Part shown: positions 6,572 through 22,721 of the stretch, piece after piece
Position numbering within the stretch: the stretch's first letter is position 1
Layout: every line of letters starts with the position of its first letter
Source of the DNA: an uncultured Clostridia bacterium
Lineage (GTDB): Bacteria; Bacillota; Clostridia; UMGS1883
Direction of reading: 5' to 3'
Assembly: GCA_947589005.1 (NCBI GenBank)
Contig: CANPZO010000007.1
Coordinates: forward strand, 1,125 to 65,124
DNA length: 64,000 nt
Notes under the pieces: generated by a model
Told to the model about the DNA's origin: nothing
Seen by the model: only the letters and a program-made list of their open reading frames with translations
Databases searched by the model: none
Translations under genes and position numbers: made by a program

Positions 6572-6599
6572 GTTTTCAGGAATTTTTTTCAAAAAGCTC

Positions 6600-6628: not shown

Positions 6629-6639
6629 TGCTACCGTAA

Positions 6640-6750: not shown

Positions 6751-6772
6751 TTTCATGTGAGGTGAAACGTGT

Positions 6773-7399: not shown

Positions 7400-7450
7400 G
7401 CCGGCATTATCAAAGGAAATAATATTTAATAATATTGGAGGTTGTTTATA

Positions 7451-7819
7451 ATGACAATTCAGGAAATTATCGATGCCATAAAAGAGCTTAAGCTGCTTGA
7501 GGTTGCCGAGCTCGTTAAGGCTATGGAAGAGGAGTTCGGCGTAAGCGCCGCCGCTCCCGTTGCCGTTGCCGGCGCTGTTGCCGGAGGCGCTCCCGCCGAG
7601 GAGGAGAAGACCGAGTTCAATCTGGTTCTGGCTGAGGCCGGCGCCGAGAAGATCAAGGTTATAAAGGTTGTTCGTGAGATAACCGGTCTCGGACTTAAGG
7701 AAGCTAAGGCTGCCGTTGACGGCGCTCCCACCACACTTAAGGAAGCCATCAGCAAGGACGACGCCGAGAAGTACAAGGCCCAGCTTGAAGAGGTTGGCGC
7801 TAAGGTAGAGCTTAAGTAA
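7451..7819 (+). CDS. rplL: 50S ribosomal protein L7/L12
   Basis: [10 protein letters not shown]; [20 protein letters not shown]. Confidence 0.98.
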
Positions 7820-7840
7820 GCTGACTTAAAAATGGAACGC

Positions 7841-7862
7841 AGAGGGGCCTTTCGGCCCCTTT
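7841..7862 (+). terminator. Terminator after rplL
   Basis: AGGGGC-CTTTCG-GCCCCT followed by TT. Confidence 0.7.
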
Positions 7863-7900
7863 AGCATAGGTAAAATTCTTGGGCGGCGTTTTGAAGCGAG

Positions 7901-8911
7901 GTGCGGAAAATGACTTACGAGGAGTTTGTAAAGGAAATAAAGGCGGGGCTTCCGTCGTCATTATATCTGCTGACAGGGCCGGAGGACTTTTTGAAGGAAA
8001 AGTGCATCGAACAGGCCAAAAGCAGGCTGGTGACGCCGGGCTTTGAGGACTTTAACTTTCAGAGCTTCAATCAGGTTCCGGATTTTTCCGCGTGCGCCGA
8101 TTTTGTGAACGGTATGCCGATGATGAGCGAACGCAAGCTGCTGGTGCTCAGAAAGTGCGGGTTTTTTGACGCGAAGCTCAAGGGCAAGGCCGACTGGGAG
8201 GGGTTGTTCTCAAATCTGCCCGAGACGGTCTGCGTCTTGCTTTGGGAGCCGGATCCGGAAAAAAAGAAAGCCTCAACCGGCCTGCGGAAGGTATGCGAAC
8301 AGGCCGGCACCGTGGTGGATTTTCAGTACCAGACAGCGTCAAAGCTGGCGCCGTGGATAGCGAAGGCGGCCTCGGCCGGAGGTAAGCTTATCGACCGCGG
8401 CTGCGCCGAATATCTCATCGCCAGCCTCGGACGCAGCATGAGCGTGCTGAAAACCGAGCTGGAAAAGGTGACGGCCTATGCCGCCGGAGAGCAGATAACC
8501 AGGGCGGACATCGACGCGGTGATAATCCTGCCCACGGAGGACAGGGCCTTCAAGCTTATCGACTCCATTATGGATGGGCGAAGGGACCTTAGCTATATGT
8601 ATCTGGGCGAGCTGCGGCAGAACAGGACGGAACCGGTACAGTTTTTGTCGCTGTTTGCCGGTCAACTGCTGACGATTTATCGGGCCAAGCTGCTGTTGGG
8701 AGAAGGAATACAGAGGAGCGCGGCGGCCAAAAGGCTGGGCGTGGCTCCGTTTGTGGCCGATAAATGCGTGGCTAAGGCCGCCCGCGCCTCGGAGGAGGGT
8801 CTGGAGGGATTGATTTCCCTTTGCAGGGACGCTGACCGGGATATAAAGCAGGGCAAAATAGAGCCTTGGACCGCGCTGGAGCTGATAGTGGCCCGGGCAA
8901 AAGTGATGTAA
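7901..8911 (+). CDS. holA: DNA polymerase III delta subunit
   Basis: LYLLTGPEDFL, PMMSERKLLVL, ELEKV and D.DIKQG motifs. Confidence 0.9.
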   Translation: MRKMTYEEFVKEIKAGLPSSLYLLTGPEDFLKEKCIEQAKSRLVTPGFEDFNFQSFNQVPDFSACADFVNGMPMMSERKLLVLRKCGFFDAKLKGKADWEGLFSNLPETVCVLLWEPDPEKKKASTGLRKVCEQAGTVVDFQYQTASKLAPWIAKAASAGGKLIDRGCAEYLIASLGRSMSVLKTELEKVTAYAAGEQITRADIDAVIILPTEDRAFKLIDSIMDGRRDLSYMYLGELRQNRTEPVQFLSLFAGQLLTIYRAKLLLGEGIQRSAAAKRLGVAPFVADKCVAKAARASEEGLEGLISLCRDADRDIKQGKIEPWTALELIVARAKVM

Positions 8912-9178
8912 ACGCCGAAGCAAAATGCTTCGGCGTTTGAGCTTGTCGAAAAACAAAAATGTAGCCTTGAAACTGTAGGGGCGGTCATTGGCCGTCCGCC
9001 ATCAAACGTTTATGTTGACAATGATAAATGATATTACAATCAAATATATTCACAAAATCGTATATTTGTCACCGTAAATCTGTGTAAGCGGGAGCGCAAT
9101 GCGCTCCCCTACAAAATCCGGCAAAGAAATCGACTTTATCGACAGTCTGAAACGCTGAAGCATTTTGCTTCGGCGTTT
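8910..9178. mobile_element. MITE-like insertion flanked by an inverted duplication of the holA terminator hairpin, containing an inverted REP doublet
   Basis: 8910-8938 AAACGCCGAAGCAAAATGCTTCGGCGTTT; 9150-9178 is its reverse complement with one mismatch. Inner ends TGTCGAAAAA / TTTATCGACA. GTAGGGG at 8975 and CCCCTAC at 9106. Confidence 0.65.
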
Positions 9179-9249
9179 TCTTTTTTTTGCATTTGATTTG
9201 TCATCAGTTTTGGGGGACGAAAAAGGTGTGAAAAAAATTTAAAAATATA

Positions 9250-9278
9250 TTGACATTGGAATTTTGGGGTGGTAATAT
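9250..9278 (+). promoter_or_regulatory. sigmaA promoter heading the phage-like operon
   Basis: TTGACA-N17-TAATAT with extended -10 TG. Confidence 0.8.
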
Positions 9279-9291
9279 ATAGCTACACAGG

Positions 9292-9305
9292 CGAACAAAT
9301 GTTTG
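9292..9305 (+). promoter_or_regulatory. LexA/SOS (Cheo) box
   Basis: CGAACAAATGTTTG fits the Firmicute GAAC-N4-GTTY consensus and lies just downstream of the -10. Confidence 0.7.
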
Positions 9306-9330
9306 CGTTTTGAAGCGGGGAGGTAGACAA

Positions 9331-9624
9331 ATGACAAAAAGAAAAAGGCCGGGGGTGAAGTTCTGCATCGTGTGCGGCAGAAAAATACCCGAGTGCAGCA
9401 ACCGGCACAAAATATGCAGCGAACGCTGCGCGAAAAAGAGAAAAAATCTCGCCAGAAACGGGATGGCGGCGCCTTATGAGTACGCAACGGAGCCTCCTAT
9501 CACATATTACTCTCTGGGCGAAATCCAGAGAAGGGCCAGAGCCATGGGGTTGAGCTACGGCCAGTATATGAGCAGGATATACAACGGAGGAATGAGCTTT
9601 GAAGGGATACAAAAGGCTAATTGA
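9331..9624 (+). CDS. Small Cys-rich zinc-finger protein with GLSYGQY motif, putative regulator
   Basis: CIVC...CSERC, basic N-terminus, ARAMGLSYGQY; GGGAGGT RBS before ATG 9331. Confidence 0.7.
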   Translation: MTKRKRPGVKFCIVCGRKIPECSNRHKICSERCAKKRKNLARNGMAAPYEYATEPPITYYSLGEIQRRARAMGLSYGQYMSRIYNGGMSFEGIQKAN

Positions 9625-11164
9625 CGAATACTTCGAGAGGTGCATGGGAGAGGAGCGAGAGGGAAAAAACGGCGAAAATATAAGAGTGAACTCCAAGCCG
9701 CCCACCCTTACGGGACTGGCGCTGGCGTTAGGCTTCAACAGCAAGGCCGAGCTGATGAAATTCGGCAGGAGCAAAAGAGGAAAGGAGTTAGTCGAGAACG
9801 CCAGACTGAAAATAGAAAATTACAACGAGGAAAAGCTGTTCGAAAAGGACTTTGCCAGAAGCGCCATTTTCAATCTCACCAACGCAAGAGAGGATCAGGC
9901 GGCGGAAGAGGAAAGGGAGACGGGCATGAAAATACCGGCGGAGCTGGTAGGCTCGGCCTTTGTGGATCTTTACAGGGACATCGCCGCGGAAGGGCACGGA
10001 GAGTACGTGCTTAAGGGCGGCCGTGGCAGCACGAAATCTTCTTTTGTGGCGCTGGTCATCATTGAAAGGCTCATGAGACGGGAGGACGAGCACGCCGCCG
10101 CCATGCGTCAGGTGGGGGCCACCCTCCGGGACAGCGTTTACGCGAGGCTGTGCTGGGCCATCAACGTACTGGGGCTGGAAAACGAGTTCGAGTGCAGACT
10201 TATGCCGCCGGAGATAATCAGGAAAAGCACAAAACAGAAAATATATTTCAGGGGCGCGGACGACCCCTCAAAGCTCAAGTCGCTGACGCCGTCCTTCGGA
10301 CACATAGGTATGCTGTGGCTGGAGGAGCTGGACCAGTTCGGCGGAGAGGCCCAGGTCAGGAGCATCGAGCAGAGCCTGCTACGGGGCGGGGAGGGGCTGG
10401 TGTTTAAAACCTTTAATCCTCCGCTTTCGAGAAACAACTGGGCCAACAGGTACGCCGCCATGCCGAAAAAGAACCGCATGGTGCATCACAGCACCTATCT
10501 GGACGTGCCGGCCCAATGGCTGGGAAGCCGCTTCATAGAGGAGGCGGAGTTCCTGAAGGAGACAAATCCGACGGCCTATGCTCACGAGTATCTGGGCGAG
10601 TGCGTGGACTGCGGCGGGCTGGTGTTTGAAAATCTCACCGTCAGGGATATAAGCGATGAGGAGATAAGCGGCTTTGAACGTATTTACAACGGCATAGACT
10701 GGGGCTGGTACCCGGACCCCTTCAGATTTTGCCGCTGCGCCTATATCGCCGGAGAAAGGCGGCTGTTCATATTTGACGAAATAAGCGGCAACAAGCTGTC
10801 GAACGGGGATATCGCGGAAAGGCTAAGGGAAAAGGGCATAGGCGGCGGGGACAGGATAACCGCGGACAGCGCGGGCGAGGGCCCCAAGAGCATCGAGGAC
10901 TTAAAGTCGGCGGGCTTTATGATAAGGGGAGCGGTTAAGGGCCCGGGGAGCGTGGAGTATTCCATGAAGTGGCTTTGCGGGCTGAGAGAGATAGTGGTGG
11001 ACGGACGGCGCTGTCCCAACGCCGCCAGGGAATTTGCGGAGTACGAATTTGAACGGGACAGGGACGGTCAGGTCATGGGCGGTTATCCCGACCGTGACAA
11101 CCACAGCATCGACGCGGTGCGCTACGCCATGGAGGAGGTTTGGCGGAAAAGAGGGATAAAGTAG
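9599..11164 (+). CDS. Terminase: small-subunit-like N-terminal domain fused to a PBSX-family large subunit
   Basis: N-terminal PPTLTGLALALGF (DNA-packaging gp3/TerS-like), Walker A GGRGSTKS, Walker B WLEELDQF, FNPP, GIDWG, nuclease DNHSIDAVRYA. GGAGGA RBS before TTG. Confidence 0.9.
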   Translation: MKGYKRLIDEYFERCMGEEREGKNGENIRVNSKPPTLTGLALALGFNSKAELMKFGRSKRGKELVENARLKIENYNEEKLFEKDFARSAIFNLTNAREDQAAEEERETGMKIPAELVGSAFVDLYRDIAAEGHGEYVLKGGRGSTKSSFVALVIIERLMRREDEHAAAMRQVGATLRDSVYARLCWAINVLGLENEFECRLMPPEIIRKSTKQKIYFRGADDPSKLKSLTPSFGHIGMLWLEELDQFGGEAQVRSIEQSLLRGGEGLVFKTFNPPLSRNNWANRYAAMPKKNRMVHHSTYLDVPAQWLGSRFIEEAEFLKETNPTAYAHEYLGECVDCGGLVFENLTVRDISDEEISGFERIYNGIDWGWYPDPFRFCRCAYIAGERRLFIFDEISGNKLSNGDIAERLREKGIGGGDRITADSAGEGPKSIEDLKSAGFMIRGAVKGPGSVEYSMKWLCGLREIVVDGRRCPNAAREFAEYEFERDRDGQVMGGYPDRDNHSIDAVRYAMEEVWRKRGIK

Positions 11165-11232
11165 GGCGAGGAGTTACGGCCGCAAGGCCGATATGTAAAA
11201 AAAGACGGGAAAAATAAACGAGGAGGGAACTT

Positions 11233-12507
11233 ATGTTTTGGAAAAAACGTGAGGAAAACGTACCCGCGGGAAGGGTGAGCACCGGAGCCATGGACGAGGC
11301 CCGGCGGAGATGGAGGTCAATGTATCTCAGCACGAAGGGGCTCCGTCTGCCGGCGGCGGTGGCCGGAGAACTGGCCCGGCTCACCACTGCGGAAATGAAG
11401 GTGAGCATTGGGGGCAGAGACGGAAAATTCCTGGAAAAAACGCTGAACCCCCTGATGGGCAGGCTGCGGCGGGAGCTGGAATACGGTCTGGCCGAGGGCA
11501 GTCTTGTGTTTAAGCCTTATTACGACGGGCGGGAGCTGAGGATTGACGTTGTTAAGGGAGACTGCTTCCGCCCGACGGCCTGGGACAGCGGCGGCGCCGT
11601 GACGGGGGCGGTGTTCGTACAGGAGATAAAAAAGGAGGACGGCTACTATGTGAGAGAGGAAAGGCACAGTCTGGGAGACGGGGCCTACCGCATAGAAAAC
11701 GCCGCCTTCAAGTGCCGTATCCCCGGAGAGGCGGGCAGGAGCATCCCGCTCCACGAGGTGGAGGAGTGGAAGGACATGGCGGAGAGCCTTGTCATAGAAA
11801 ATGTAAACAGGCCGCTTTTCGGATTTTTCCGCACGCCGTCGGCTAACACGACGGACCCCGGGTCGCCCTTGGGAGTATCGGTTTTTGCCGGAGCGGAGGA
11901 GCTGATGGAGGACGCGGACAGGCTGTACAAAAACCTGCTGTGGGAGTTCGAGAGCGGCAAGCGGCGGCTGTACGTGGACGTTACGGCCTTTGAGCGCGAC
12001 CCGAAGGGACGGCCCAAGCTGCCCGACACGGAGCTGTTCAGGACCATAGACGTTAATGACAGCGGCTTTTTCAGCGAGTGGTCGCCGGAGCTGCGGAACG
12101 GGGCCATTCAGTCGGGACTTAATACGGTGCTCCAGAGGGTGGAGTTCAACTGCGGGCTGGCTTACGGTACGGTGTCTCAGCCCTCCTATGTGGAAAAGAC
12201 GGCGGAGGAGATAAGGTCGTCAAAGCAGCGGAGCTACTGCTTTGTGAAGGACCTTCAGCGGGAGCTGGAAAAGGCCCTCAGAGAGCTTATAGACGCTTTG
12301 AGCGTGTGGGCGGAGCTGTACGGACTGGTGGAAAATGGCGAGTATGAGTGCGGCTTCGAGTTCGACGACAGCATTGTGGCAGACCGCCGAACGGAGTACG
12401 AGGAGAGGGTGCGGCTCACGGAACTGGGCGTGCTCAGACCCTGGGAGCTCCGCGCCTGGTATCTGGGCGAGACCGAGACTATGGCGAGGGAGGCCCTCGG
12501 CGAGTGA
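11233..12507 (+). CDS. Phage portal protein (A118/SPP1-like)
   Basis: Follows terminase; SPLGVSVF, WEFESGK, EFNCGLAYG, KTAEEI and FDDSIVAD motifs. Confidence 0.9.
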   Translation: MFWKKREENVPAGRVSTGAMDEARRRWRSMYLSTKGLRLPAAVAGELARLTTAEMKVSIGGRDGKFLEKTLNPLMGRLRRELEYGLAEGSLVFKPYYDGRELRIDVVKGDCFRPTAWDSGGAVTGAVFVQEIKKEDGYYVREERHSLGDGAYRIENAAFKCRIPGEAGRSIPLHEVEEWKDMAESLVIENVNRPLFGFFRTPSANTTDPGSPLGVSVFAGAEELMEDADRLYKNLLWEFESGKRRLYVDVTAFERDPKGRPKLPDTELFRTIDVNDSGFFSEWSPELRNGAIQSGLNTVLQRVEFNCGLAYGTVSQPSYVEKTAEEIRSSKQRSYCFVKDLQRELEKALRELIDALSVWAELYGLVENGEYECGFEFDDSIVADRRTEYEERVRLTELGVLRPWELRAWYLGETETMAREALGE

Positions 12508-12827
12508 AAAAGATAAGGATATTCAGCTATGACAGGGCGGCGGGGGCATACAGCTTCGCCGACTACAACTGCACGGTCGTTCTTCATGACGGACAGGAGC
12601 CGGAAAGCGGTGGGACTTACCGCAAAAACGGAGGCAGCGTCAGGATAATGACAAGTAAGGACGTTGCCGTGAGGCCGGGAGACTGGCTTTCTCTGGACAC
12701 GGGACGCGACAGGCCGGATAAGGACAGGGACAGGCTGGTCACCGAGGTAAGGGACAACAGAAGGGGCGGACTGCCCCATTGGAGGCTGATATTAGATGGC
12801 AGGGCCGGAGTTAGAGTTAACTCTTAA
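12504..12827 (+). CDS. Putative head-closure/stopper protein
   Basis: GTGA overlap with the portal stop, GAGGGAGG RBS; C-terminal VRDNRRGGLPHWRL. Confidence 0.65.
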   Translation: MKKIRIFSYDRAAGAYSFADYNCTVVLHDGQEPESGGTYRKNGGSVRIMTSKDVAVRPGDWLSLDTGRDRPDKDRDRLVTEVRDNRRGGLPHWRLILDGRAGVRVNS

Positions 12828-13158
12828 TCCCACGGAGAACATACTGCGGAAGAGGGGACTGGACAAGGGCGGCGCGGTGCAAAGGGCGGTGGATAAAGCG
12901 GTCATCGACCTATGCGAGCCATATGTCCCCTTTGACACAGGAGCTTTGAAGGAAAGCCCAAAAACCTGTTCCTCGCCGGGAAAGGTGGTCTACGGTATGC
13001 CCTATGCCCGAAAGCAATACTACGAAAACAAGGGCGACGGCGGCCTGAGAGGAGCGAGGTGGTTCGAGCGCATGAAGGCGGACCATATGGGCGACATAGT
13101 CGAAATAGCCGAGGAAACGATGAAAAAAAGCGGCGGGCAAAAGGGCGCGGCGAACTGA
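12796..13158 (+). CDS. Minor capsid/neck protein (HK97 gp10-like)
   Basis: PYVPFDTGAL, PYARKQYY, RGARWFERMKA. Confidence 0.8.
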   Translation: MAGPELELTLNPTENILRKRGLDKGGAVQRAVDKAVIDLCEPYVPFDTGALKESPKTCSSPGKVVYGMPYARKQYYENKGDGGLRGARWFERMKADHMGDIVEIAEETMKKSGGQKGAAN

Positions 13159-13173
13159 AAAAGGGAGGAAAAT

Positions 13174-13494
13174 ATGAAATTTACGTTTGAAAATTTTTCG
13201 AGAGAGGTGGACAACATGGACGTGGCCGTGGTAAAGCGTTATGAGAGCTGCCTTGAGGACTTTTATAAAAGGGTGGCGGGCATAGATATGAAAAAGAAGG
13301 CCAGCGGCATATACGGCGACATATGCGCTGCCGGCGAGGCCATGATGGACGGCTTTTTCGGCGAGGGCGCGGCACGGGAAATGTTCGGCGAGAGCCAGAG
13401 CGTCAGAAAGGTCATGGAGGCGGTCTGCGGGCTCAACGGCTATATGAACGACGTGAGCGGGGTCGTTGACGGCATGAGGAGATTGGGAGCGTGA
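13174..13494 (+). CDS. Putative tail assembly chaperone
   Basis: FFGEGAAREMFG motif; directly upstream of the Gp15-like gene. Confidence 0.6.
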   Translation: MKFTFENFSREVDNMDVAVVKRYESCLEDFYKRVAGIDMKKKASGIYGDICAAGEAMMDGFFGEGAAREMFGESQSVRKVMEAVCGLNGYMNDVSGVVDGMRRLGA

Positions 13495-14033
13495 GCATCC
13501 TGACCCGCGGACTGCCGGAGTTTGTGGTCTGCCGGGGAGAGAGATATGAGATAGAAACAGACTTCCGGGTCTGGATAGATTTTTACGAGCGGGCCCGGGA
13601 GCGGGATATACCGGGGATGCTTAAGGTGTACCGCCGTCTGCCGCCCTCGCTGAGCGAGGCGCTGGAGCTGGCGGCGGAGTTCGGCCGGGGAGGAGCCCTG
13701 CCCTACGGAAGCGGACATAGGGGCGGCCGCGCCCTGCTGGATTACGAGGCCGACGCGGGACTCATATACGCGGCCTTTATGGGTGAGTACGGCATCGACC
13801 TCTGTGAGGCAAGGCTCCACTGGTACAAGTTCTGCGCTCTGCTGGCAGGTCTTGGGGAGGGTCGGGCCCTTTCCAGGGTGATGGCCATCAGGGGCATGGA
13901 CCCGTCGGCCCAGACCGACAGCGGACGCAGAAGCGAGCTGCGGAGGCTCCAGAGGATATACGCCTGTCCGGACAGGCGCAGCCTTGAGGAGCGGGACGCG
14001 GACGCGGCGGCGGTCCTCGGTAAGTTTTATTGA
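13491..14033 (+). CDS. Bacteriophage Gp15-family protein (tail chaperone)
   Basis: IETDFRVWI; DYEADAGLIYAAF..EYGIDL...LHWYKF.ALL. Confidence 0.85.
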   Translation: MSILTRGLPEFVVCRGERYEIETDFRVWIDFYERARERDIPGMLKVYRRLPPSLSEALELAAEFGRGGALPYGSGHRGGRALLDYEADAGLIYAAFMGEYGIDLCEARLHWYKFCALLAGLGEGRALSRVMAIRGMDPSAQTDSGRRSELRRLQRIYACPDRRSLEERDADAAAVLGKFY

Positions 14034-14082
14034 CGTATGGCAGGGAGGGTGGGATAAAAATATTTTGGAAGGAGGGAAAATA

Positions 14083-14472
14083 ATGGACAGAAAATTTTTG
14101 GAGGAAAAGGGCCTCGACGAGGAGGCCATCGACGAGATAATCGCCGAGCATGAGAAGCTAATGGACGAGCTTCGGGTTGAAATGGAGGCCAAAATCTCCG
14201 AAAAGGAGGAAGAGATGGAGGAGCTCCGCAGGGACTTCGACATCGACAGAGAGCTGACCGGACTGGGAGCCAGAAACCATAAGGCGGTAAAGGCCCTGCT
14301 CGACAAGGAGGCTCTCAGAACGGGCGACCCCGAGGAGCTCGTAAAACAGCTGGAAAAGATACGCCGTGAAAACGGATATCTTTTTGCCGGCTCGAATACC
14401 CCCGTGGCCACCGGCCCTACCGCGCCCAGAACCGAAAAGAGCTTCGGGTTTAAGTTTACGGGGGTAAGATGA
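14083..14472 (+). CDS. Capsid scaffolding protein (GP20-like)
   Basis: MDRKFLEEKGL, coiled coil, GARNHKAVKALLD, GYLF; GGAGGG RBS. Confidence 0.85.
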   Translation: MDRKFLEEKGLDEEAIDEIIAEHEKLMDELRVEMEAKISEKEEEMEELRRDFDIDRELTGLGARNHKAVKALLDKEALRTGDPEELVKQLEKIRRENGYLFAGSNTPVATGPTAPRTEKSFGFKFTGVR

Positions 14473-14552
14473 GGGACGGCCGACGTCCCCAAATCGGCGG
14501 CGGGCCTTAAGCGACCCACGGCCGGCCATGAAAAACGAAAGGAGTAAAAATT

Positions 14553-15437
14553 ATGGCAGCACTTAACTATGCGACCGAATACGCGGGCAGTCTTGCCCAG
14601 GCGTATCCCTATGTGCTCAACTTCGGCGCTCTCTACAATACGGAGAACGATCAGCGTTACCGCTGGGTAAACGCTAAAACCATCGAGATACCCAGCATTA
14701 CCACCACCGGCAGGGTGGACGGCGACAGGGACACCATCGCGACGGCAAAGCGCAACTATGACAACGCCTGGGAAATGAAGACCCTTACTCACCACCGCAA
14801 GTGGAGCACTCTCGTACATCCCATGGACATAGACGAGACAAATATGACCGCGTCTATCAGCAACATAACTCAGGTGTACAACGAGGAGCACAAGTTCCCC
14901 GAAATGGACGCCTATACCGTATCGGAGATATACAAGCTCTGGACAACGGACGGCAATACCGCCGACACCACCGTGCTCAAGGCGACAAACGTGCTTTCGG
15001 TATTTGACAAAATGATGGAGGCCATGGACGAGGCCAGAGTCCCCGCCAAGGGAAGGATACTTTACGTGACCCCCGCGGTAAAGACCCTGATCAAAAACGC
15101 GAACCAGCTTTCTCACGTCATTAACAACGGCGACGCCAAGGTGGACCGCAGCGTGGCGGACCTGGACAGCGTGGAGATAGTGGCCGTGCCCAAGAACCTG
15201 ATGAAAACCTCCTACGACTTCACGGAGGGTTGGAAGGTCGGCGGAGATGCCAAGCAGATAAATATGCTGCTCATCCATCCCAGCGCGGTCATAACTCCCG
15301 AAAAGTACACCTTTGCCCGTCTGGACGAGCCCAGCGCCGGAAGCGAGGGCAAGTACATATACTTTGAGGAAAGCTATGACGGGGTGTTCATCCTCAACAA
15401 GAGAATGGGCGGAGTGGCCTTTAACACGGAGGCTTGA
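14553..15437 (+). CDS. Major capsid protein
   Basis: ALNYATEY, IEIPSI, VHPMDIDETN, FPEMDAY, MDEARVP..GRILYVTP; follows the scaffold gene. Confidence 0.9.
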   Translation: MAALNYATEYAGSLAQAYPYVLNFGALYNTENDQRYRWVNAKTIEIPSITTTGRVDGDRDTIATAKRNYDNAWEMKTLTHHRKWSTLVHPMDIDETNMTASISNITQVYNEEHKFPEMDAYTVSEIYKLWTTDGNTADTTVLKATNVLSVFDKMMEAMDEARVPAKGRILYVTPAVKTLIKNANQLSHVINNGDAKVDRSVADLDSVEIVAVPKNLMKTSYDFTEGWKVGGDAKQINMLLIHPSAVITPEKYTFARLDEPSAGSEGKYIYFEESYDGVFILNKRMGGVAFNTEA

Positions 15438-15440
15438 GCC

Positions 15441-15797
15441 ATGAGCTACGAGGAGTATCTGGAAAGATACACCGGAGCGGAGCCTGTGCCGGAGCGGGAA
15501 TTCGGCTTTTACTGCGAAAAGGCGGGCAGGCTCATAGACAGCTTCACCTTCGGGCGCGGGTCGGAGTCGGAGCTGGAGGAGGTGGCTTACGCCCAAGCGG
15601 AGCTGATACAGTATCTCTATGAAAACAGCGGAAGGAGAGGCGTGGTCAGCGAGAGCAACGACGGCCTGAGCGTAACCTATGCCGACGGCGGCTCCGAGGT
15701 CTCGGACGCCAGAGACATTGTGAAGCAGTGGCTCGGCGGTACCGGCCTTATGTACGCCGGAGTGGAGATGGGAGAGAGCTGCGATGGCGGTTATTGA
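15441..15797 (+). CDS. Head-tail connector/adaptor
   Basis: IDSFTFGR, SESNDGLSVTY, L..TGLMYAG. Confidence 0.8.
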   Translation: MSYEEYLERYTGAEPVPEREFGFYCEKAGRLIDSFTFGRGSESELEEVAYAQAELIQYLYENSGRRGVVSESNDGLSVTYADGGSEVSDARDIVKQWLGGTGLMYAGVEMGESCDGGY

Positions 15798-16200
15798 CAG
15801 TGTGAGGCGGTTTTTCGCGGAGTGCCCGCTGCTTGAGGACGGCTGTATAAACGTGAATTATCTGGGAGCAAAAAAAGCGGATTACAGCATAGAGAGCGTT
15901 CCGTCGGAGCCTGTGGTGCGCCGGTACGTGGACGGGGGCGAGCTGAGACAGTACGTCTTTGTTTTCGCCTCCCGTGAATACTACGACGAGGACATGGAGG
16001 ACAATTCCCACACCGCCGGTTTTTATGAGGAGCTGGCGGCATGGATAGAGGACAGCGGCAAAAATGGGAGGCTGCCTGTGCTGACCGGCGGAAAGGCCCT
16101 TGCCATGGAGGTCATGTCCGGCGGCTATGTCCTGTCGGAAAAGGCCGGAACCGCCAGATACCAGATGCAGCTTAGGCTGATATACAAAAAGGAGGAGTAA
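15784..16200 (+). CDS. Tail terminator / minor capsid-type protein
   Basis: YSIE..P....V..YVDG...RQY.F, ARYQMQLRLIY; lies before the tail tube gene. Confidence 0.7.
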   Translation: MAVIDSVRRFFAECPLLEDGCINVNYLGAKKADYSIESVPSEPVVRRYVDGGELRQYVFVFASREYYDEDMEDNSHTAGFYEELAAWIEDSGKNGRLPVLTGGKALAMEVMSGGYVLSEKAGTARYQMQLRLIYKKEE

Positions 16201-16202
16201 AT

Positions 16203-16664
16203 ATGGCACTGGTAAAACGCTGTGAGAAGCTGGCGTTCATGAATGTGGACGGAACTTATCACAGAATGACTAATTTTACGGAGATAGCCGTGGAGAAAAA
16301 CCCCAGGGAATACTCCCGGCAGTACGTGGACGAGGAGTTTGAACGCTCCAGCATTGTGGGCTACAGCACGGCGGTAAGCTACAGCTTCGACTACGACAAC
16401 GAGAACAAGGTCCACAACCTCATAAAGAAGATAACGGACAAGGAACTGCTTGCGGACGAGGCCGTCGTGGAGATAGTTATGGTGGATATCGATAATACCG
16501 AGGGCAAAAATCAGGCGGTGAGCCGCCGTTGGAGCGTTATACCCGAGACCGAGGGCAACAGTACCGACGCCTACACCTACAGCGGAAGCTTCCGCGCCAA
16601 CGGCCCTGCCGCGGATGTCAAGGCGGTATCCGCCGACGGCTGGAAAACCATAACGGTTGAGTAA
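16203..16664 (+). CDS. Major tail (tube) protein
   Basis: NPREYSRQYVDE, YTYSGSF.ANG; position before the tape measure gene. Confidence 0.75.
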   Translation: MALVKRCEKLAFMNVDGTYHRMTNFTEIAVEKNPREYSRQYVDEEFERSSIVGYSTAVSYSFDYDNENKVHNLIKKITDKELLADEAVVEIVMVDIDNTEGKNQAVSRRWSVIPETEGNSTDAYTYSGSFRANGPAADVKAVSADGWKTITVE

Positions 16665-16693
16665 GCGGGACGCCCGTAAGCGGAGGTGAGGCT

Positions 16694-18400
16694 ATGGCGG
16701 GAGACGGAAGTATCGTCATAAATACCGAGCTCGACACCGGAGGTCTGGAAAAAGGGCTGGACAGGCTCAAGGAGCTGGTCAAAAGCCGGTCCGCCGACGC
16801 CGGTGACAGTCTCGGCGGAATATTCGACGGCCTTGAGTCGGCGCTTAAGGGTATCTCGGTGACCGAGGGGATAGGAAAGCTCATCGACAGCGCGAAGGAC
16901 GCGCTGGTGGGCGGCGCGGCGGAGCTCAGCTCCGCCGCCGGCCTGACCGCGAGGGACGCGGCAGAGGGCCTCGGCGCGGGTGATGATAATTTCAGAAAAG
17001 GCGGGAGCGGCCTTGCGGCGGCCGCCGCCGAGGGTCTTTCATCGGGGGAAAACGCTCTTGACGCCGCCGGAAGCTCGGCGGCGGAGAGCGCGGCCTCGGC
17101 CATGAATGTGCCCGGAAATTTCCTTTCCGTGGGGCTGAACCTCATAAACGCCCTGAGAAACGGTTTGGCCTCCGGCGCCGCCGCCCTCTATGCCAAGGCG
17201 TCGGAAATCGCCGGAAGGGTCACGGCTCTGGTAAAGGGCGTGTTCAAGATACATTCTCCCTCGGCGGTGTTCAGAGATGACATCGGTAAGATGCTGATGC
17301 TGGGCCTGCGGGACGGTATCTTGAACAATTCCGAGGCGGTGCTGGCGGCAACGGAGGCTCTGGCGGAGGATATGCTTGAGTCGGAAAAGAGGTATCTGGC
17401 GGAGAAGAAACGGATAGACGAGCTCAACGACCAGGAGGACGAGGCCCGCCGGGTCCGCGAGTACGAAGAAAGGCTCAGCCTGGCCAAGACTCGGGAGGAA
17501 AAGGACGAGCTTATAGAGGAAGAAAGGCTCCGGCTCAGAAAGCGGGCCGACGCCAAGTATCTCGAGCAGCTCAAGTCCGCCGCTGAAAAGGAAAGGGAAA
17601 TAATTGACGGGCTCAAGGAGGACATTACGGCGGCTTACAAGGACATAGCCGAGTATATAGAGAACAGTCTGGAGCCCATAGAGGAGGACCGCAGAGACCT
17701 TGAGGACAAGCTGAAAAAGTACGCCGGAAGCAGCGGCGGTCTGTACACAACGGTGATAGAGCGCAAGGACCGTGACGACCTGGTCTATTACGGTTTGGCG
17801 GACCAGCAGAGGGCCATAGACATTCTGAACAAATACTCCTCGGCGCTCGGCGCCGCCTCGGAACGGATAAAGTCGGCCTTCGGCCCGGAAACGGCAAGGA
17901 GCTTTATGTCCGCCCTGACGGAGATGGACGTGGAGGAGGGCGCGATTTTTGCCGAAACCTTGGCGGCGGCGTCGGACGCGGACTTTGAAAAGTACATTAA
18001 AGACTGGGGAAAGAAGAACACCCTTGCGGAGGAGATATCCCGTCAGCTTTACGGCGAAGCCTTCACCGACGCGGTGGACGACTGCACCGAGTATATGCGC
18101 AGTGAGCTGGAAAAATTGGGGCTTGAGGTGCCGGAGGGCTTTTTCGCCAGCGGCAGCCTCAGCGCAAAGGAGTTCGGCAGAGGCTTTTCCGAGGGGATAA
18201 ATCAGGTCCTTGAGGAGGCGGGAGAGCTGATAAGGAGCTTCGGCGGCTTTTCGACAGCGGCGGCGGCCGGCGGGACGCCGGTGGTGAACAACAACTATTA
18301 CAGCACCTATTCCGTAAACGGAACAAGGAGCACCGCCGCGGAAAGCATCTTTGCCATGGAAGCCGCCGCCGTAATGAACAGATACAGGGGGCTGAACTGA
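16694..18400 (+). CDS. Short tape measure protein (568 aa)
   Basis: DGSIVINTELDT.G N-terminus, Ala/Gly-rich helical region, IHSPS.VF motif. Confidence 0.85.
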   Translation: MAGDGSIVINTELDTGGLEKGLDRLKELVKSRSADAGDSLGGIFDGLESALKGISVTEGIGKLIDSAKDALVGGAAELSSAAGLTARDAAEGLGAGDDNFRKGGSGLAAAAAEGLSSGENALDAAGSSAAESAASAMNVPGNFLSVGLNLINALRNGLASGAAALYAKASEIAGRVTALVKGVFKIHSPSAVFRDDIGKMLMLGLRDGILNNSEAVLAATEALAEDMLESEKRYLAEKKRIDELNDQEDEARRVREYEERLSLAKTREEKDELIEEERLRLRKRADAKYLEQLKSAAEKEREIIDGLKEDITAAYKDIAEYIENSLEPIEEDRRDLEDKLKKYAGSSGGLYTTVIERKDRDDLVYYGLADQQRAIDILNKYSSALGAASERIKSAFGPETARSFMSALTEMDVEEGAIFAETLAAASDADFEKYIKDWGKKNTLAEEISRQLYGEAFTDAVDDCTEYMRSELEKLGLEVPEGFFASGSLSAKEFGRGFSEGINQVLEEAGELIRSFGGFSTAAAAGGTPVVNNNYYSTYSVNGTRSTAAESIFAMEAAAVMNRYRGLN

Positions 18401-19251
18401 TGGAGATAATTTTTAGAAACGCTCTGGGTGCCATAGAAATGGACGGCGGCTCCGGAACGGCGCCCTTTAAAATACTTGGCGCGGAGGGGCTGGGTTACCT
18501 GACACAAAGCGTCAAGACGACGGCCTATCCCTTCATGGCCGGACAGAGGACCCTTTCGCGCAGCCCGGGGGCGAGGCTCGTCACTCTGTCCGCCGAGGCC
18601 GCCGAGGGCGGCGCGAACTACGAAGGCACCGTGGCGGCCATCGCCCACGAAAGCGGACGGCTGGAAATAATACACGGTGAAAAAAGGGTGTACGCCGACT
18701 GCTATGTAAGCGCCCTGAACGTCACCCGGGCCAAGGGCGGAGAGTACGAAAAGTATGTGTTCCAGTTCACTTGCGACTATCCGTATTTCCGTGACATGAA
18801 CGCCGGCGCGGTGAGCCTGTTCCGGAGAAATAAGCTGGTAAAGGGGAGCTTTGTGCTGCCGAAGGTGTTTTCCGAAAGGGTCACCGGCGGAACGGTGACG
18901 GTCAAAGGCGACAGGGAGGTCTATCCTACGGTTTATGTCCGGGGACTGTCTTACGAAACGGAGTTCCCTCTTGAGCTGGAGAACACCGCCACAGGCGCAA
19001 GGCTTAAGCTGACGCTGCCGGCGGGGGAATACGAGCTGATAACCTTTGACCTGCGCAACGGAAGGATAAGCTGCGGCGAAAAGGATTTGAGCAAATATCT
19101 GGACGAGAACAGCTTCATGAGTGATTTTTACCTCTTGAAGGGCGAAAATCGCATCGAGGTCAGAGCCATGGACCTTTCGGTGAACACCTCGGCCTCGGTG
19201 AGCTGTGAAAGCGAGTATTACAGCGCGTGGGAGGACAGAGATGTGCGGTGA
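18400..19251 (+). CDS. Distal tail (Dit)-like protein
   Basis: Follows the tape measure gene; FTCDYPYF and L.KGEN.I motifs. Confidence 0.75.
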   Translation: MEIIFRNALGAIEMDGGSGTAPFKILGAEGLGYLTQSVKTTAYPFMAGQRTLSRSPGARLVTLSAEAAEGGANYEGTVAAIAHESGRLEIIHGEKRVYADCYVSALNVTRAKGGEYEKYVFQFTCDYPYFRDMNAGAVSLFRRNKLVKGSFVLPKVFSERVTGGTVTVKGDREVYPTVYVRGLSYETEFPLELENTATGARLKLTLPAGEYELITFDLRNGRISCGEKDLSKYLDENSFMSDFYLLKGENRIEVRAMDLSVNTSASVSCESEYYSAWEDRDVR

Positions 19252-20185
19252 ACTGATTTTTTACGACTATGAGTTCAATCCTTTGGGAAGGGTGGCGCGG
19301 GCGGCGGACATCTATCACAAGGAGATATACAACGGCATCGGCACATTTGAGGCGGAAATCGACCGTTCGGAGCCAATGGCGGCGGAGCTTTTGAGAAGAG
19401 ATTACACCGTTGTAATATGGGACGGCCTACAGGCGGTGATAACCTCCGTCCAGGCGGAGGAGGGCGAGGAGACGGTGAGGATATACGGACGCACTCCCAA
19501 CTGGATCCTCGGCAAACGGGCCTGTCCCAACTTCGGCCAACGTAACGGAACGCCTCACGCGCTGGCCCACGCTTTGGTGAGCGAGGTCTGGGGCGACAGC
19601 ATCGCCGACGGTCCGGGCGGAGATATCGGGGGCGAGGAGACCACCTTCTGGCGGAACGTGTACAATCCCTTAAGCGAGGTGGTAGCGGACTGCCTTGACC
19701 GTGCCGGAGCGGGACACCGGGTGGTGTTCGACACAAATGATAAGCAGTGGAGGTTCGAGACCTACGAGGGGAGGCTCCTGCCGCTGATGTTTTCGTCGGA
19801 CAGGCGCAACGCTGCCGATATGAGCTGCAGCCACAGCGTGCTGGACCATTTCAACGGCGGCTTTTATACCACCGACGAGGAGAAGGGCACGTGGACGGAG
19901 ATACCCTCGGACAAGGAGGGCATATACCGCTGGACCGCCCGCCTGACAAGCACCGGCGAAAGTTCGGCCAAAAACGAGCTTGAGAAGAAGAAAATAGAAA
20001 ATAAAATCGACTTCAGCACTCTTGATATTCTGCGGGGCAGGGATTACGAGCTGGGTGACCGCGTCCGCGCGGCCATGGACCTTGGCGGAAAGCGGATAGT
20101 GAACGAAATGAGGATAACGGCGGTGGAAAGGTGGGCGTCGTACAATGACAGCGGCGAAAGGCCGCTGTTGGAGGGAATGGAGTGA
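19241..20185 (+). CDS. Siphovirus Gp37-like baseplate hub/tail protein
   Basis: YNGIGTFE and RDYELGDRV motifs; position after Dit. Confidence 0.75.
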   Translation: MCGELIFYDYEFNPLGRVARAADIYHKEIYNGIGTFEAEIDRSEPMAAELLRRDYTVVIWDGLQAVITSVQAEEGEETVRIYGRTPNWILGKRACPNFGQRNGTPHALAHALVSEVWGDSIADGPGGDIGGEETTFWRNVYNPLSEVVADCLDRAGAGHRVVFDTNDKQWRFETYEGRLLPLMFSSDRRNAADMSCSHSVLDHFNGGFYTTDEEKGTWTEIPSDKEGIYRWTARLTSTGESSAKNELEKKKIENKIDFSTLDILRGRDYELGDRVRAAMDLGGKRIVNEMRITAVERWASYNDSGERPLLEGME

Positions 20186-20320
20186 GAAACGCGCGGCGCA
20201 AGCGATATGCGCCGCGGCTCTTTAAGGGCTGTTCTCCACTCTATGACGCGGGGGTACAAGTCCCGCCGGAGCACCGAAGGGCGGGACTTAGGCCCCTATT
20301 GAATTTGCAGAGGTGAAAAA

Positions 20321-21190
20321 GTGAAATATTACTTTGGCGATAATCGGGAATACGGCGCCGCCGACATAAAAAAAGCCTTTGGCGTGTTCGCGGCGCAGGG
20401 AGGCATAGACTTGGGACTAAGCGACGGAAAGCAGCACAGTCCCTCGGATTTGAACCGCATCATAGCCGCGGCGGTGAGCAAGGGCGTCGTCACCGAAAGC
20501 AACAGCTGTCTCAGGCTTGACGAAAAGGACGGCGGCTACTATATCCTGCCGGGCAAGGGAGTGTTTTCCGACGGCGGCATGGCGGAGGTAGAGGAGGAGA
20601 CGAGGGTCGATATAAGCGGAGGGCATTATCTGTACATAGCCTACAGTGAAATGCTGGACGAGGTGTATTTCCTTGTGACGTCGGACCCCCGCACCGACAG
20701 CGTCAGCGAGCTCCTGATACCCATAGCCTACGTGGACGAAAGCGGAAAGCCTCGGGATATGCGGGAATTTGCCAGAGGCAAGCTGCCGGCCCTGCCCTCG
20801 GCCACCTGGAACGTGATGCGCGAGGTGGAGCTGGTGGTGGACGCATCGACCGTAACTCACGGGGAGATAAATTCCGACCGCTATATCGAGGCGAGGCATC
20901 CCATCGACGGCGACATAAACTTTATGATGGTGGAAAGCGAAATATTCATGTCCACCATGAACATAGGCCCTGTCGGCGCCGCCTATCACACGGTGGCGGG
21001 CGGCGGCACCGGATTGCACATCCACACCCACGACTATTTTGGCGTGCATTACAGCGGCAGCTTTTACCGCGCCACCTATCTGGGCGGAGGGAGCGGCTAT
21101 ATAGACCTGCGGTATTATTTCCCCAAAAATCTGGCCGGTGGAAGGTTTTCGTATAAGGCGACGGTGGGGATAAAAAATAACCCTGTGTGA
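20321..21190 (+). CDS. Baseplate/receptor-binding-like structural protein
   Basis: N-terminus (DNREYGAAD...V..GV...PGKG) resembles clostridial phage upper-baseplate proteins; last gene of the module. Confidence 0.55.
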   Translation: MKYYFGDNREYGAADIKKAFGVFAAQGGIDLGLSDGKQHSPSDLNRIIAAAVSKGVVTESNSCLRLDEKDGGYYILPGKGVFSDGGMAEVEEETRVDISGGHYLYIAYSEMLDEVYFLVTSDPRTDSVSELLIPIAYVDESGKPRDMREFARGKLPALPSATWNVMREVELVVDASTVTHGEINSDRYIEARHPIDGDINFMMVESEIFMSTMNIGPVGAAYHTVAGGGTGLHIHTHDYFGVHYSGSFYRATYLGGGSGYIDLRYYFPKNLAGGRFSYKATVGIKNNPV

Positions 21191-21473
21191 GAGACCGGAA
21201 TATTGATCGTCCCATGTCCGCCCGCGCCGCCGGCGATTACGGCGGCGAGCTATATTAAGGGGCAGGAACCGCCAAAAAATCACGGAGGCACTGGGGCTGT
21301 CAAAAAAATCGCGTAGAAAAAAATCGGAACAGGCGTTGCATCGCTTGTTTCGATTTTTTTTACTTTTTCGGCGGCTTGAGGGCAAGCCGCCCTACGGAGC
21401 ACTAACGCAACAAAGTAGAGGTTTCGTTTTTCGCAGCCCCCTTTTTTGTTTTGAAAAATTTTCTGTAAAAATA

Positions 21474-21502
21474 TTGATTTTTGCCCCGGCACGTGGTAAA
21501 AT
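21474..21502 (+). promoter_or_regulatory. sigmaA promoter for rodA
   Basis: TTGATT-N17-TAAAAT with extended TG. Confidence 0.6.
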
Positions 21503-21539
21503 AGAGGGCGAAACAAAAAACGGAAAGGGAGGCGGCGGC

Positions 21540-22721
21540 ATGGAAGAGACGGAAAACACGGAGAACACGGCCGTGGAGCCGGAGCGGGCGGTAAAGCCCA
21601 AAAAGGAAAAGAAAGAAAAAAAGGGCCTGTTTTCCGACGCGGTGGACCACTCGCTGTTGATTTATGTCATACTCGCCTCGCTTTGCGGCATTGTGGCGGT
21701 GAACAGCGCCTCGGCCGGCATAGAGGGGCATTACCGCTATGTGATAGTGCAGTCGGCGGCTTTTCTGCTGGGAATGGCGGCTATGACGGCGCTGACCTTT
21801 TTTAATTACAAATATCTGGACAAGCTCAGATTTGTATTTCTGGGCGCGGCGGTGGCGCTGCTGGCGGTGGTGCTTGTGATAGGCAAAATTCGGGGCGGAA
21901 CTCAGGGCTGGCTTGCCGTGGGCCCGCTGAACCTTCAGCCCGCCGAAATCGCCAAGCTCTGCTTTATAATCACCATGTCCTGCCATCTGGCGCGGGTGCA
22001 TGAAAGCGTAAATAAGCCTAAGACCCTGATTTTCCTGCTGCTGCATTTGGGAATTTACGTGGGGCTGATACTGCTTCAGCCCGACTTCGGCACGGCGATG
22101 GTTTTTGTGGTCATCTTCTGCGCGGAGCTGTTCTTCGCGGGGATAAGCCTTAAGTATGTGTTCGGCACTTTGGGGGCGGCGGCGCTGGCCTCGCCGATAA
22201 TATGGTTCCTGCTAAAGCCCCATCAGAGGGGCCGCCTGCTCAGCTTTATCAACCCCGAAAGCGACCCCACCGGCACCGGCTATCATGTGCTTCAGTCCAA
22301 GCTGGCTATGGGCAGCGGCCAAATCTGGGGCAGGGGCTATCTTAAGGGGCCTCAGACCCAGTACGGTTACCTGCCGGAAAGACAGACGGACTTTATTTTC
22401 TCCTCCATAGGCGAGGAGTTCGGTTTTGTGGGCTGCGTCATAATAGCGGCGCTGCTTTTCCTTATAATATACCGCTGCTTCAAGGACGCGGTGGACAGCC
22501 GCCACGAGCCTATGGGTATGTTTATCTGCGTGGGCGTGGGGGCGATGATGTTTTTCCACACCTTTGAAAATATCGGAATGTGCCTGGGACTTATGCCCAT
22601 AACCGGCATACCTCTGCCCTTTGTGAGCTACGGCGGCAGCAGTATGCTGACCTGCTGCGCCGCCATCGGCCTTGTGCAGAGCGTCATCACGAGGCGGCGG
22701 CGGACAAAATTTGATATATAA
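21540..22721 (+). CDS. rodA: SEDS-family peptidoglycan polymerase RodA
   Basis: QPAEIAK, LQPDFGT, GYHVLQS..A.GSG, TDFIFS.IGEEFG, PITGIPLPFVSYGGSS. Confidence 0.88.
   Translation: MEETENTENTAVEPERAVKPKKEKKEKKGLFSDAVDHSLLIYVILASLCGIVAVNSASAGIEGHYRYVIVQSAAFLLGMAAMTALTFFNYKYLDKLRFVFLGAAVALLAVVLVIGKIRGGTQGWLAVGPLNLQPAEIAKLCFIITMSCHLARVHESVNKPKTLIFLLLHLGIYVGLILLQPDFGTAMVFVVIFCAELFFAGISLKYVFGTLGAAALASPIIWFLLKPHQRGRLLSFINPESDPTGTGYHVLQSKLAMGSGQIWGRGYLKGPQTQYGYLPERQTDFIFSSIGEEFGFVGCVIIAALLFLIIYRCFKDAVDSRHEPMGMFICVGVGAMMFFHTFENIGMCLGLMPITGIPLPFVSYGGSSMLTCCAAIGLVQSVITRRRRTKFDI

Follow-up and report, generated by a model that had tools for sequence, protein, structure and literature searches.

A phage-derived head-tail operon with a LexA box and a second, unlinked lysis locus in a genus of gut Clostridia: a candidate gene transfer agent-like particle system

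The window analysed here is a stretch of 64,000 nucleotides (G000:C7:1125-65124) from an uncultured Clostridia bacterium, whose metagenome assembly G000 comprises 2.1 Mb in 38 contigs and is 93.5% complete. At window positions 9250-21361 it contains an operon of 16 phage-type genes, called locus I in the following, which was compared across the 11 species representatives of the genus (G000 to G010), all of them uncultured and present as metagenome assemblies. That locus I has been domesticated is strongly supported. Judged from the sequences, it is probably one part of a two-locus, phage-derived, vertically inherited and SOS-controlled particle system ("viriform") resembling either a gene transfer agent (GTA) or the PBSX particle, and we likewise lean towards the view that this system has been inherited since the last common ancestor of this genus of gut Clostridia. 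The more far-reaching proposal, that we are dealing with the first siphovirus-type GTA of Clostridia with a defined parts list, i.e., a co-speciated, LexA-gated head-tail operon by which DNA damage would lead to random export of the chromosome, is possible and is put forward tentatively.

The 16 open reading frames (ORFs) of locus I are all on the + strand and extend from 9331 to 21190. They are bounded by a single promoter (9250-9278) and a single intrinsic terminator (21316-21361, + strand), which consists of a 20-pair stem followed by a T run. The left neighbour is holA (7901-8911) and the right neighbour is rodA, which has its true start near 21541 and a separate promoter at 21474-21502. 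An earlier note on this DNA, made from its letters alone, had described 15 co-oriented, uninterrupted ORFs between housekeeping flanks with their own promoter and terminator boundaries; orientation, intact frames and boundaries stand, and the count is corrected to 16. Its statement that integrase, replication genes, an immunity switch and att repeats are missing from the locus also holds: searches with Pfam, PHROG and NCBIfam found no integrase, replication, repressor/immunity, holin or lysin protein among the 16, no direct repeats of at least 14 nt bracket locus I, and there is no tRNA gene in window 1-30000. By its gene content locus I thus appears to be what one expects of a GTA, namely packaging and structural genes without replication, integration and lysogeny modules. 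In composition it lies within the range of its genome, with a GC content of 0.576 (genome 0.550; 86th percentile among 12-kb windows) and a tetranucleotide usage at the 87th percentile of the 12-kb windows of the same genome, while a species-specific prophage region deviates more (GC 0.506, 95th percentile).

The operon begins with g01 (9331-9624), which encodes a 97-amino-acid basic zinc-ribbon protein with only weak treble-clef matches and 27 homologues (53-93% identity) among 5.8 billion proteins; it is a candidate DNA-recognition subunit or activator. The product of g02 (9599-11164) is a terminase in which an N-terminal domain like that of small subunits (TerS; approximately residues 6-93) is fused to a large subunit (TerL) of the PBSX family with an ATPase and an RNaseH-like nuclease part (Pfam GP3_package, Terminase_3 and Terminase_3C; phrog_606 and phrog_3717; TIGR01547 with 123.7 bits at a cut-off of 105). 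It is followed by the portal gene g03 (11233-12507; phrog_533, E = 9e-102; a match to the A118-type portal model TIGR01542 is under that model's cut-off) and by g04 (12504-12827), which encodes a small protein weakly matching Pfam DUF6751. The start of g04 is taken to be a GTG overlapping the portal stop codon; the gene is conserved in nine species and occupies the place where phages usually have a minor head protein. Then come g05 (12796-13158), a head-closure protein of the Minor_capsid_2 type (PF11114; phrog_556 positions 54-166), g06 (13174-13494; DUF6673, PF20378, phrog_4450) and g07 (13491-14033; Phage_Gp15, PF06854, E = 1e-27; phrog_706), of which the latter two are probably the first and second tail assembly chaperones. 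The head genes are completed by g08 (14083-14472), a short scaffolding protein of about 129 amino acids (Phage_scaffold model positions 74-163 of 170; phrog_194) with a start chosen from where the cross-species alignments begin, by the major capsid gene g09 (14553-15437; phrog_422, E = 1e-102), whose product is 66% identical to the capsid proteins of the C. difficile phiC2-group phages, by the head-tail adaptor g10 (15441-15797; phrog_541 and a weak Phage_connect_1 match) and by the tail completion (neck) protein g11 (15784-16200; phrog_3266, E = 5e-44).

The tail genes start with g12 (16203-16664), which matches phrog_3099, a family without a named function (E = 2.5e-33), and which from its position before the tape measure gene is probably the tail tube. 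(In species G004 the g12 frame stays open past the usual stop up to the contig end, with 244 rather than 153 codons; L023, G004:C129, 3786-4517.) The tape measure protein encoded by g13 (16694-18400; matches to ten PHROG families, mainly of the tape-measure type) is short, having 568 amino acids as compared with 1398 in a prophage on contig C18 of the same genome. Downstream are g14 (18400-19251) for the distal tail protein Dit (phrog_33; weak SPP1_Dit match) and g15 (19205-20185) for a Tal or Sipho_Gp37-type baseplate hub (PF14594, E = 1.7e-14; phrog_538); the bounds given for g15 are those of the ORF, and an ATG at 19241 may be its true start. The last gene, g16 (20321-21190), encodes a lineage-specific baseplate or fibre-adaptor protein of 289 amino acids with 19 homologues in the 5.8 billion proteins and with no match in Pfam, PHROG, PADLOC or the PDB sequences (best PDB E value 0.25); distant homologues stand between Tal and fibre in the C18 prophage (29% identity) and 3' of the capsid genes in two other prophages. 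Tape measure, Dit and a Sipho_Gp37-type Tal together indicate a non-contractile tail of the siphovirus type, and no tail sheath family was found among the operon proteins with Pfam and PHROG.

The same 16 genes in the same order are found in nine of the 11 species, with one copy of the cluster per genome. The capsid protein is conserved at 83-92% identity in eight of the ten other species and, wherever the contig reaches, the 16 genes are collinear, intact and of near-identical length in up to eight other species. Queries with capsid, terminase and tape-measure sequences revealed no copy in G006 (86% complete) and G007 (91% complete), the TerL match in G007 being unrelated (37% identical). Outside the genus no capsid protein more than 70% identical was detected by a pattern scan of 185,579 species with one genome each. 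In 14 more distant loci examined (51-70% capsid identity) the shared genes have the canonical phage order, which is TerL, portal, scaffold, capsid, g05-like, g11-like, tube and Gp15 with a tape-measure match 2.5-5 kb past Gp15; tblastn matches to g01, g04, g06, g14, g15 and g16 were not obtained in these loci. Thus in related prophages the homologue of g05 stands after the capsid gene and that of g07 between the tube and tape-measure genes, whereas in locus I g05-g07 have been shifted to the interval from portal to scaffold; in addition, locus I encodes a short tape measure protein and has no minor head gene. Because this derived order is common to all copies and missing from the 14 related prophage loci, a single origin of the copies is indicated.

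The history of the operon follows that of its hosts. A host tree calculated from rpoB, secA and gyrB (2839 columns) has the topology ((G005,(G002,(G007,(G004,G008)))),(G006,(G003,((G000,G001),(G009,G010))))), and a tree of the 16 element genes (3983 columns) the topology ((G005,(G002,(G004,G008))),((G000,G001),(G003,(G009,G010)))), with full support on six of six inner branches. The two differ only in G003, which is placed in the host tree by gyrB alone and at a node with 74/74 support. Since G006 and G007 are nested within the host tree, the absence of the cluster from these two species is considered to be due to loss or to an assembly gap.

Ratios of nonsynonymous to synonymous divergence (dN/dS), determined by the method of Nei and Gojobori, range overall from 0.04 to 0.5. 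They are 0.04-0.30 for 16 of 16 genes between G009 and G010 (dS 0.1-0.86), 0.04-0.41 for the 11 genes available between G004 and G008, and 0.06-0.50 for the 14 genes available between G000 and G001, where dS is near saturation; synonymous divergence amounts to 0.1-1 for the closest pairs and exceeds 1 for the others. By gene, the values are 0.11-0.19 for g01, with an intact frame in seven species, 0.12-0.15 for g02, 0.07-0.19 for g03, 0.05-0.14 for g06, 0.04-0.06 for g09 and 0.07-0.15 for g12. The highest values of the set, 0.3-0.6, are those of g04, which is partly due to an overlap of the analysed frame with the end of the portal gene. As the earlier note had anticipated for a maintained particle, dN/dS is well under 1 for all 16 genes and the trees of element and host are congruent, with G003 as the sole exception. 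Because of these two results and of the conservation of the gene set in nine of 11 species, long-term selection for particle production, which the note had preferred to random prophage decay, is well supported, and such decay is not. The sequences thus point to an operon that is passed down vertically within the host lineage and held under purifying selection.

It should be noted that it is the gene set and not its place in the chromosome that is conserved. The cluster had been thought to be fixed between holA and rodA, which proved not to be the case: the rodA side recurs in G001 only, and elsewhere the cluster has different housekeeping neighbours, among them rpsL, an rsmD-like gene, a phosphotransferase system (PTS) transporter, phosphoglycerate mutase, a ComF-like gene and a large glycoside-hydrolase-like protein. 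In G009 yabQ-divIC-S1 lies 4 kb downstream of the cluster, and in both G009 and G010 the histidinol dehydrogenase gene (hisD) is found upstream while the flanks on the other side differ. All eight copies with flanking sequence have housekeeping flanks (the G004 contig has no flank), and in the flanks checked there was neither an integrase nor a transposase gene. Since gene order is generally unstable in the genus, the changing position is read as rearrangement around an operon that selection apparently keeps whole.

The promoter of locus I (9250-9278, + strand) is the best promoter-like site in window 8800-21700. It has a -35 hexamer TTGACA (9250-9255), a 17-nt spacer and a TG-extended -10 hexamer TAATAT (9273-9278), and an A-rich stretch lies 5' of it. 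At 9292-9305 (+ strand), 13 nt 3' of the -10 hexamer, there is an SOS box of the Cheo type, CGAACAAATGTTTG, which agrees with the LexA box consensus of Gram-positive bacteria; in the other six species in which the region is visible the box reads GAACAnATGTTC(G). A strong sigma-A promoter together with a LexA box is present at seven of seven visible locus I promoters. Upstream DNA cannot be aligned between species except for a block of about 75 nt with promoter and box, which is kept in seven of the seven species with a contig reaching it, and the combination of promoter and LexA box was found at none of 19 related prophage loci scanned. In G000 similar boxes stand in the promoters of recA, uvrB (an exact match), lexA, a radical-SAM repair gene and a yneA-like gene. 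The last of these (G000:C33:100-530) encodes a small membrane protein with a LysM-like region, has two to three LexA boxes in its promoter and is probably a YneA-like SOS inhibitor of cell division. The canonical lexA (224 bits; G000:C15:52410-53024) is present in G000 at a place other than locus I, and the operator sequences suggest that locus I is expressed under the control of this host regulator rather than of a phage switch. A second LexA-like gene, encoding a fast-evolving S24 peptidase paralogue with a non-canonical N-terminus, is located 2.5 kb downstream (window 23720-24334) and occurs in nine of the 11 species at 33-58% identity. It was considered as a dedicated repressor of the element and rejected, because it is present in G007, which does not carry the cluster, and was not found in the carrier G009.

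The earlier note had also stated that holin and endolysin are absent. This is correct for locus I and incorrect for the genome, in which a second locus (locus II; G000:C4:10359-13651, outside the window) supplies a 703-amino-acid tail fibre, a holin of the Phage_holin_4_1 family and an endolysin with Amidase_2 and SLH domains. In G000 it stands between a transaldolase-like gene and a cation-efflux gene, a context that is alike in G009. The N-terminal domain of the fibre is found in eight of nine carriers of locus I and in neither of the two non-carriers, and the full fibre-holin-lysin cassette in G000, G002, G004, G005, G008 and G009; G003 shows fibre genes only, because its contig is short. 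Loci I and II lie on different contigs in eight of eight metagenome assemblies that have both, and in G008 there is no locus II promoter within 34 kb of locus I on its contig. Since the gene order in the C18 prophage is Tal, g16-like, fibre, ..., lysin, the two loci together correspond to one phage late region that was cut between g16 and the fibre gene. The distribution over split loci that is known from GTAs is thus seen in part, as far as the assemblies allow it to be read. No other lysis cassette with an SOS box was found in G000.

The two loci are also connected by their promoters. A 28-nt signature, T[TG]ACA-N-GG-N-A-N-TTTT-N-GG-N-TG-N-TA-NN-AT, is present at locus I (9251-9278) and at locus II, each copy of which is preceded by TTTACA-N-GG-N-A-N-TTTT-N-GG-N-TG-N-TA-NN-AT. 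When at most one mismatch was allowed, 87 genomes of the order gave 14 matches, all of them in the genus and all of them locus I or locus II promoters; the reversed signature, used as control in the same 87 genomes, gave none. With up to three mismatches G000 has four matches, of which the two loci are the best two, and five shuffled genomes have none. An exact LexA box 3' of the -10 hexamer of locus II is present in G004 and G008 only.

From these findings the following mechanism can be proposed. Upon DNA damage, RecA-stimulated self-cleavage of LexA would de-repress locus I. A headful terminase of the PBSX family would then fill the heads, mostly with chromosomal DNA, because there is no replication module that could amplify the element. 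Locus II would be co-expressed via the shared promoter element, possibly driven by a factor from locus I such as g01, and in G004 and G008 it has a LexA box of its own. Its products would add the receptor-binding fibre and lyse the producer cell, and the released particles would adsorb to related cells and deliver host DNA. Since the two loci are unlinked and neither an integrase nor a replicon is present, the system should be unable to spread as a phage.

Several observations weigh against a vertically inherited, GTA-like or PBSX-like particle system, or against parts of this reading. The system is known from genes alone, and these come from metagenome assemblies in all 11 genomes. Among the carriers, G001 (86% complete) yielded no locus II, and G010 is without an endolysin gene adjoining the holin gene; a Sir2-like gene lies there directly 3' of the locus II holin gene (L126, G010:C14, 12099-13447), so that the lysin of G010 may be encoded at another site or may have been lost. 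In its C-terminal parts the G000 fibre shares 93-98% identity with that of the C18 prophage, which suggests from the sequences that the domesticated element and this prophage exchanged receptor-binding modules; in view of this fibre/lysin mosaic, the link between the two loci rests on their co-occurrence and on the shared promoter. A tree of the N-terminal 160 residues of the locus II fibre, most of whose branches are poorly resolved, neither supports nor contradicts vertical descent. In the six other species the holin-lysin operon has a near-consensus promoter without a LexA box, and its silencing is unexplained. There is no sign of a small head. In length the capsid protein equals that of C. 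difficile phages with genomes of 44-56 kb, to which it is 66% identical, and therefore the 12-kb operon might fit into one head in full. The short scaffold and the lack of a minor head gene are also to be noted. The position of the cluster differs in almost every species, which could also mean occasional movement, and in a check for an empty site in G006 and G007 the matching contigs contained, of the G008 genes lying up to about 17 kb upstream and 5 kb downstream of locus I, a single one, the ComF-like gene, and this without synteny.

PBSX keeps terminase and portal and is yet best known as a killer particle, and conserved packaging genes are therefore no proof of DNA delivery. The present system could accordingly be a PBSX-like killer particle that is SOS-induced and harms competing strains via its variable fibre, with packaged DNA as a by-product. 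The terminase is of the PBSX family, the SOS control proposed here agrees with the behaviour of PBSX, variability and mosaicism are greatest in the fibre, as would be expected of a targeting module under diversifying pressure, and vertical inheritance and purifying selection fit this explanation equally well. Nevertheless we regard it as unlikely, since the tail is non-contractile, without a sheath gene, and since capsid, portal and terminase are among the most constrained proteins (dN/dS 0.04-0.19), a constraint not easily understood if the tail alone were of importance, as F-type tailocins have lost their heads. That locus I encodes such a tailocin is contradicted by its intact and strongly constrained terminase, portal, scaffold and capsid genes.

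Much less probable is a helper-dependent mobile structural cassette that is moved by resident prophages or by its own transduction, although it would explain the differing sites: the flanks differ between species, on one side even within the sister pair G009 and G010, the G000 copy is bordered on either side by interspersed repeats, and functional-looking prophages are co-resident, with one of which the locus II fibre has recombined. A cassette moving in this way is not what the congruence of element and host trees and the single copy per genome lead one to expect, and no integrase, transposase, att repeat or tRNA was found at any copy. Moreover, gene order is scrambled generally, with no other queried G008 flank gene syntenic in G007, and such sharing of flanks as exists follows relatedness (G000 and G001 on the rodA side, G009 and G010 on the hisD side, G000 and G009 in the context of locus II).

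The resident prophages themselves appear ordinary. That on contig C18 (G000:C18:27700-46000) has TerL, portal, a ClpP-like protease, a 392-amino-acid capsid protein, the 1398-amino-acid tape measure protein, fibre and lysin. That on contig C4 (G000:C4:79000-102956) has integrase, Erf, ParB-like, exonuclease and DnaB-like genes and a promoter with its own LexA box (C4:97673). The early module of the latter (integrase, Erf, ParB, DnaB and the SOS-box promoter) was considered as the missing half of the element and was rejected, the Erf gene being present in none of the ten sister species; the module, next to which a g06-like gene is found, has the appearance of belonging to an ordinary prophage.

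Less likely again is a prophage remnant, inert and as yet undecayed, or a co-option of the proteins for a use other than particle formation such as interference with infecting phages. Remnants are common, the particles are known from genes alone and two species of the genus are without the cluster. But 16 of 16 frames are intact wherever covered, with dN/dS of 0.04-0.5, the promoter and operator are conserved while the remaining intergenic DNA is not, what has been retained covers packaging, head, tail, fibre and lysis completely and coherently, and PADLOC defence models gave no match for 10 proteins. A functional temperate prophage can be dismissed, since integrase, immunity and replication modules and att sites are absent whereas the prophages in the same genome have these modules, and so can a phage satellite, i.e., a phage-inducible chromosomal island (PICI) or a capsid-forming one (cf-PICI), since the element is vertically inherited and has no integrase, replication initiator or att sites at any copy.

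Among known systems, PBSX of Bacillus subtilis, a defective prophage or GTA-like element, is SOS-inducible and non-propagating and keeps packaging, head, tail and lysis functions; it has a contractile tail, forms one contiguous element of about 28 kb and possesses its own repressor Xre and a sigma-like activator Xpf. The element described here shares with it a Firmicute host and a large terminase of the same NCBIfam family, TIGR01547. It differs in having no sheath gene, no regulator family in the operon and its lysis genes at a separate locus, and in that LexA appears to act directly at the structural operon. RcGTA, the type known from Alphaproteobacteria, has a siphovirus-like head-tail cluster of 14-15 kb with further fibre and lysis loci elsewhere, co-evolves vertically with its host and is under host regulation: CtrA, GafA and quorum sensing control it, and LexA has an indirect influence. 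For RcGTA a small T=3 head has been demonstrated by experiment. With GTAs of this type the present system, known from its genes, has in common the siphovirus-like cluster, the split loci, the vertical inheritance and host regulation, but its origin is independent, the host phylum is different and, where for RcGTA the head size has been shown, here there are genes only. Homologous capsid (51-70% identity), portal, terminase, Gp15, connector and tape measure proteins are found in temperate phages of the A118/phiC2 type from Firmicutes and in the related prophage loci (L037-L052). However, the annotated phages have complete genomes of 44-56 kb, and the 14 prophage loci have the canonical order and are without the promoter/LexA signature.

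The earlier note knew of no GTA described in Clostridia, which is out of date, since FpGTA of Faecalibacterium prausnitzii has been described, albeit as podovirus-like and, as far as the report goes, from Faecalibacterium only (PMC12946183). According to the description, FpGTA consists of 10 ORFs in 10.5 kb arranged in two operons, has heads of about 40 nm holding 8.4-8.9 kb, and was not found in Gemmiger or Subdoligranulum (PMC12946183, Nat Commun 2026). The two systems resemble each other in that the host is a Gram-positive gut Clostridia bacterium, the genes are structural only, the element is near-ubiquitous in one genus and there are no integrase and replication genes; they are also alike in layout, and in layout only, by having a packaging/head operon and an operon for fibre or receptor-binding protein (RBP), holin and endolysin (PMC12946183). 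The present element, in contrast, has a full siphovirus tail with tape measure, Dit and Tal, has 16 ORFs and is not of the podovirus-like type, and it has a LexA box and a promoter signature common to both loci, which the description of FpGTA does not mention; it is set apart from FpGTA by description and not by sequence (PMC12946183). GTA-like packaging has been reported in gut Ruminococcaceae, Oscillospiraceae and Christensenellaceae, and as common in the first two (PMC12946183). According to recent virome studies, random host DNA is packaged into capsids by many gut Clostridia (PMC12946183; 10.64898/2026.07.08.737213). A preprint proposes a candidate in Coprocola with a 14-kb cluster (large and small terminase and structural genes) and a 3.6-kb holin-lysin cluster, and states that no cluster was found in Pelethomonas (10.64898/2026.07.08.737213). 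As far as these two sources report, a validated GTA cluster of gut Clostridia is available for Faecalibacterium only and one candidate has been proposed for Coprocola (PMC12946183; 10.64898/2026.07.08.737213). A siphovirus-type, LexA-gated and co-speciating GTA of Clostridia was not found in the literature searched, of which the supplements may list more (PMC12946183; 10.64898/2026.07.08.737213). With the FpGTA precedent published in 2026, the element would therefore, by the published descriptions, be a new type of an already known kind of system (PMC12946183).

To this kind of system the genus studied here contributes a complete candidate gene set from another lineage and of a different morphotype, which is evolutionarily validated, and offers two regulatory elements, the LexA operator and the promoter signature common to both loci. 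It also shows that the evolutionary criteria for a GTA (co-phylogeny, purifying selection and host control) can be addressed successfully from metagenome assemblies alone. If the interpretation is correct, the gene set and its cis-regulatory signature would be at hand for the "orphan" GTA-like packaging signals of gut Oscillospiraceae-like bacteria, and DNA damage would switch a subpopulation into particle production. If the particles move host DNA upon SOS induction, antibiotics and other stresses that damage DNA would lead directly to more gene flow in these gut bacteria.

Some features of the borders and of the wider neighbourhood of locus I should finally be mentioned. Between holA and the operon promoter lies an interspersed repeat of about 215 bp (window 8938-9152), which is flanked by hairpins at 8910-8938 and 9150-9178 and of which at least 15 copies with 88-96% identity are found on other G000 contigs. 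It holds a promoter-like site and a GC hairpin, has a terminator-like hairpin at its end, and gives rise to contig breaks and to approximately 7-fold depth spikes in metagenome contigs. Three partial copies (3596-3650, 3810-3866 and 4027-4083) are located in the intergenic region at 3.4-4.3 kb. At the right border (window 21284-21420) there are further families of short repeats of about 30-130 bp with dozens of copies in the genome. A contig joint 9147->21284 (run X5) that skips the cluster was considered as an empty site and was rejected, as the interspersed repeat families at both borders account for the joint. An Rfam scan of window 1-30000 yielded a single match, the L10 leader (RF00557, 45.6 bits) at 6634-6758, which is the expected site upstream of rplJ. 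The nusG-rplKAJL block is followed by holA (together window 4732-8911) and not by rpoB, which is found about 37 kb further on (45081-48533), with the phage-like operon, rodA and sporulation and germination genes standing in between; this separation of rplKAJL from rpoB is an unusual break in a normally conserved string of genes.

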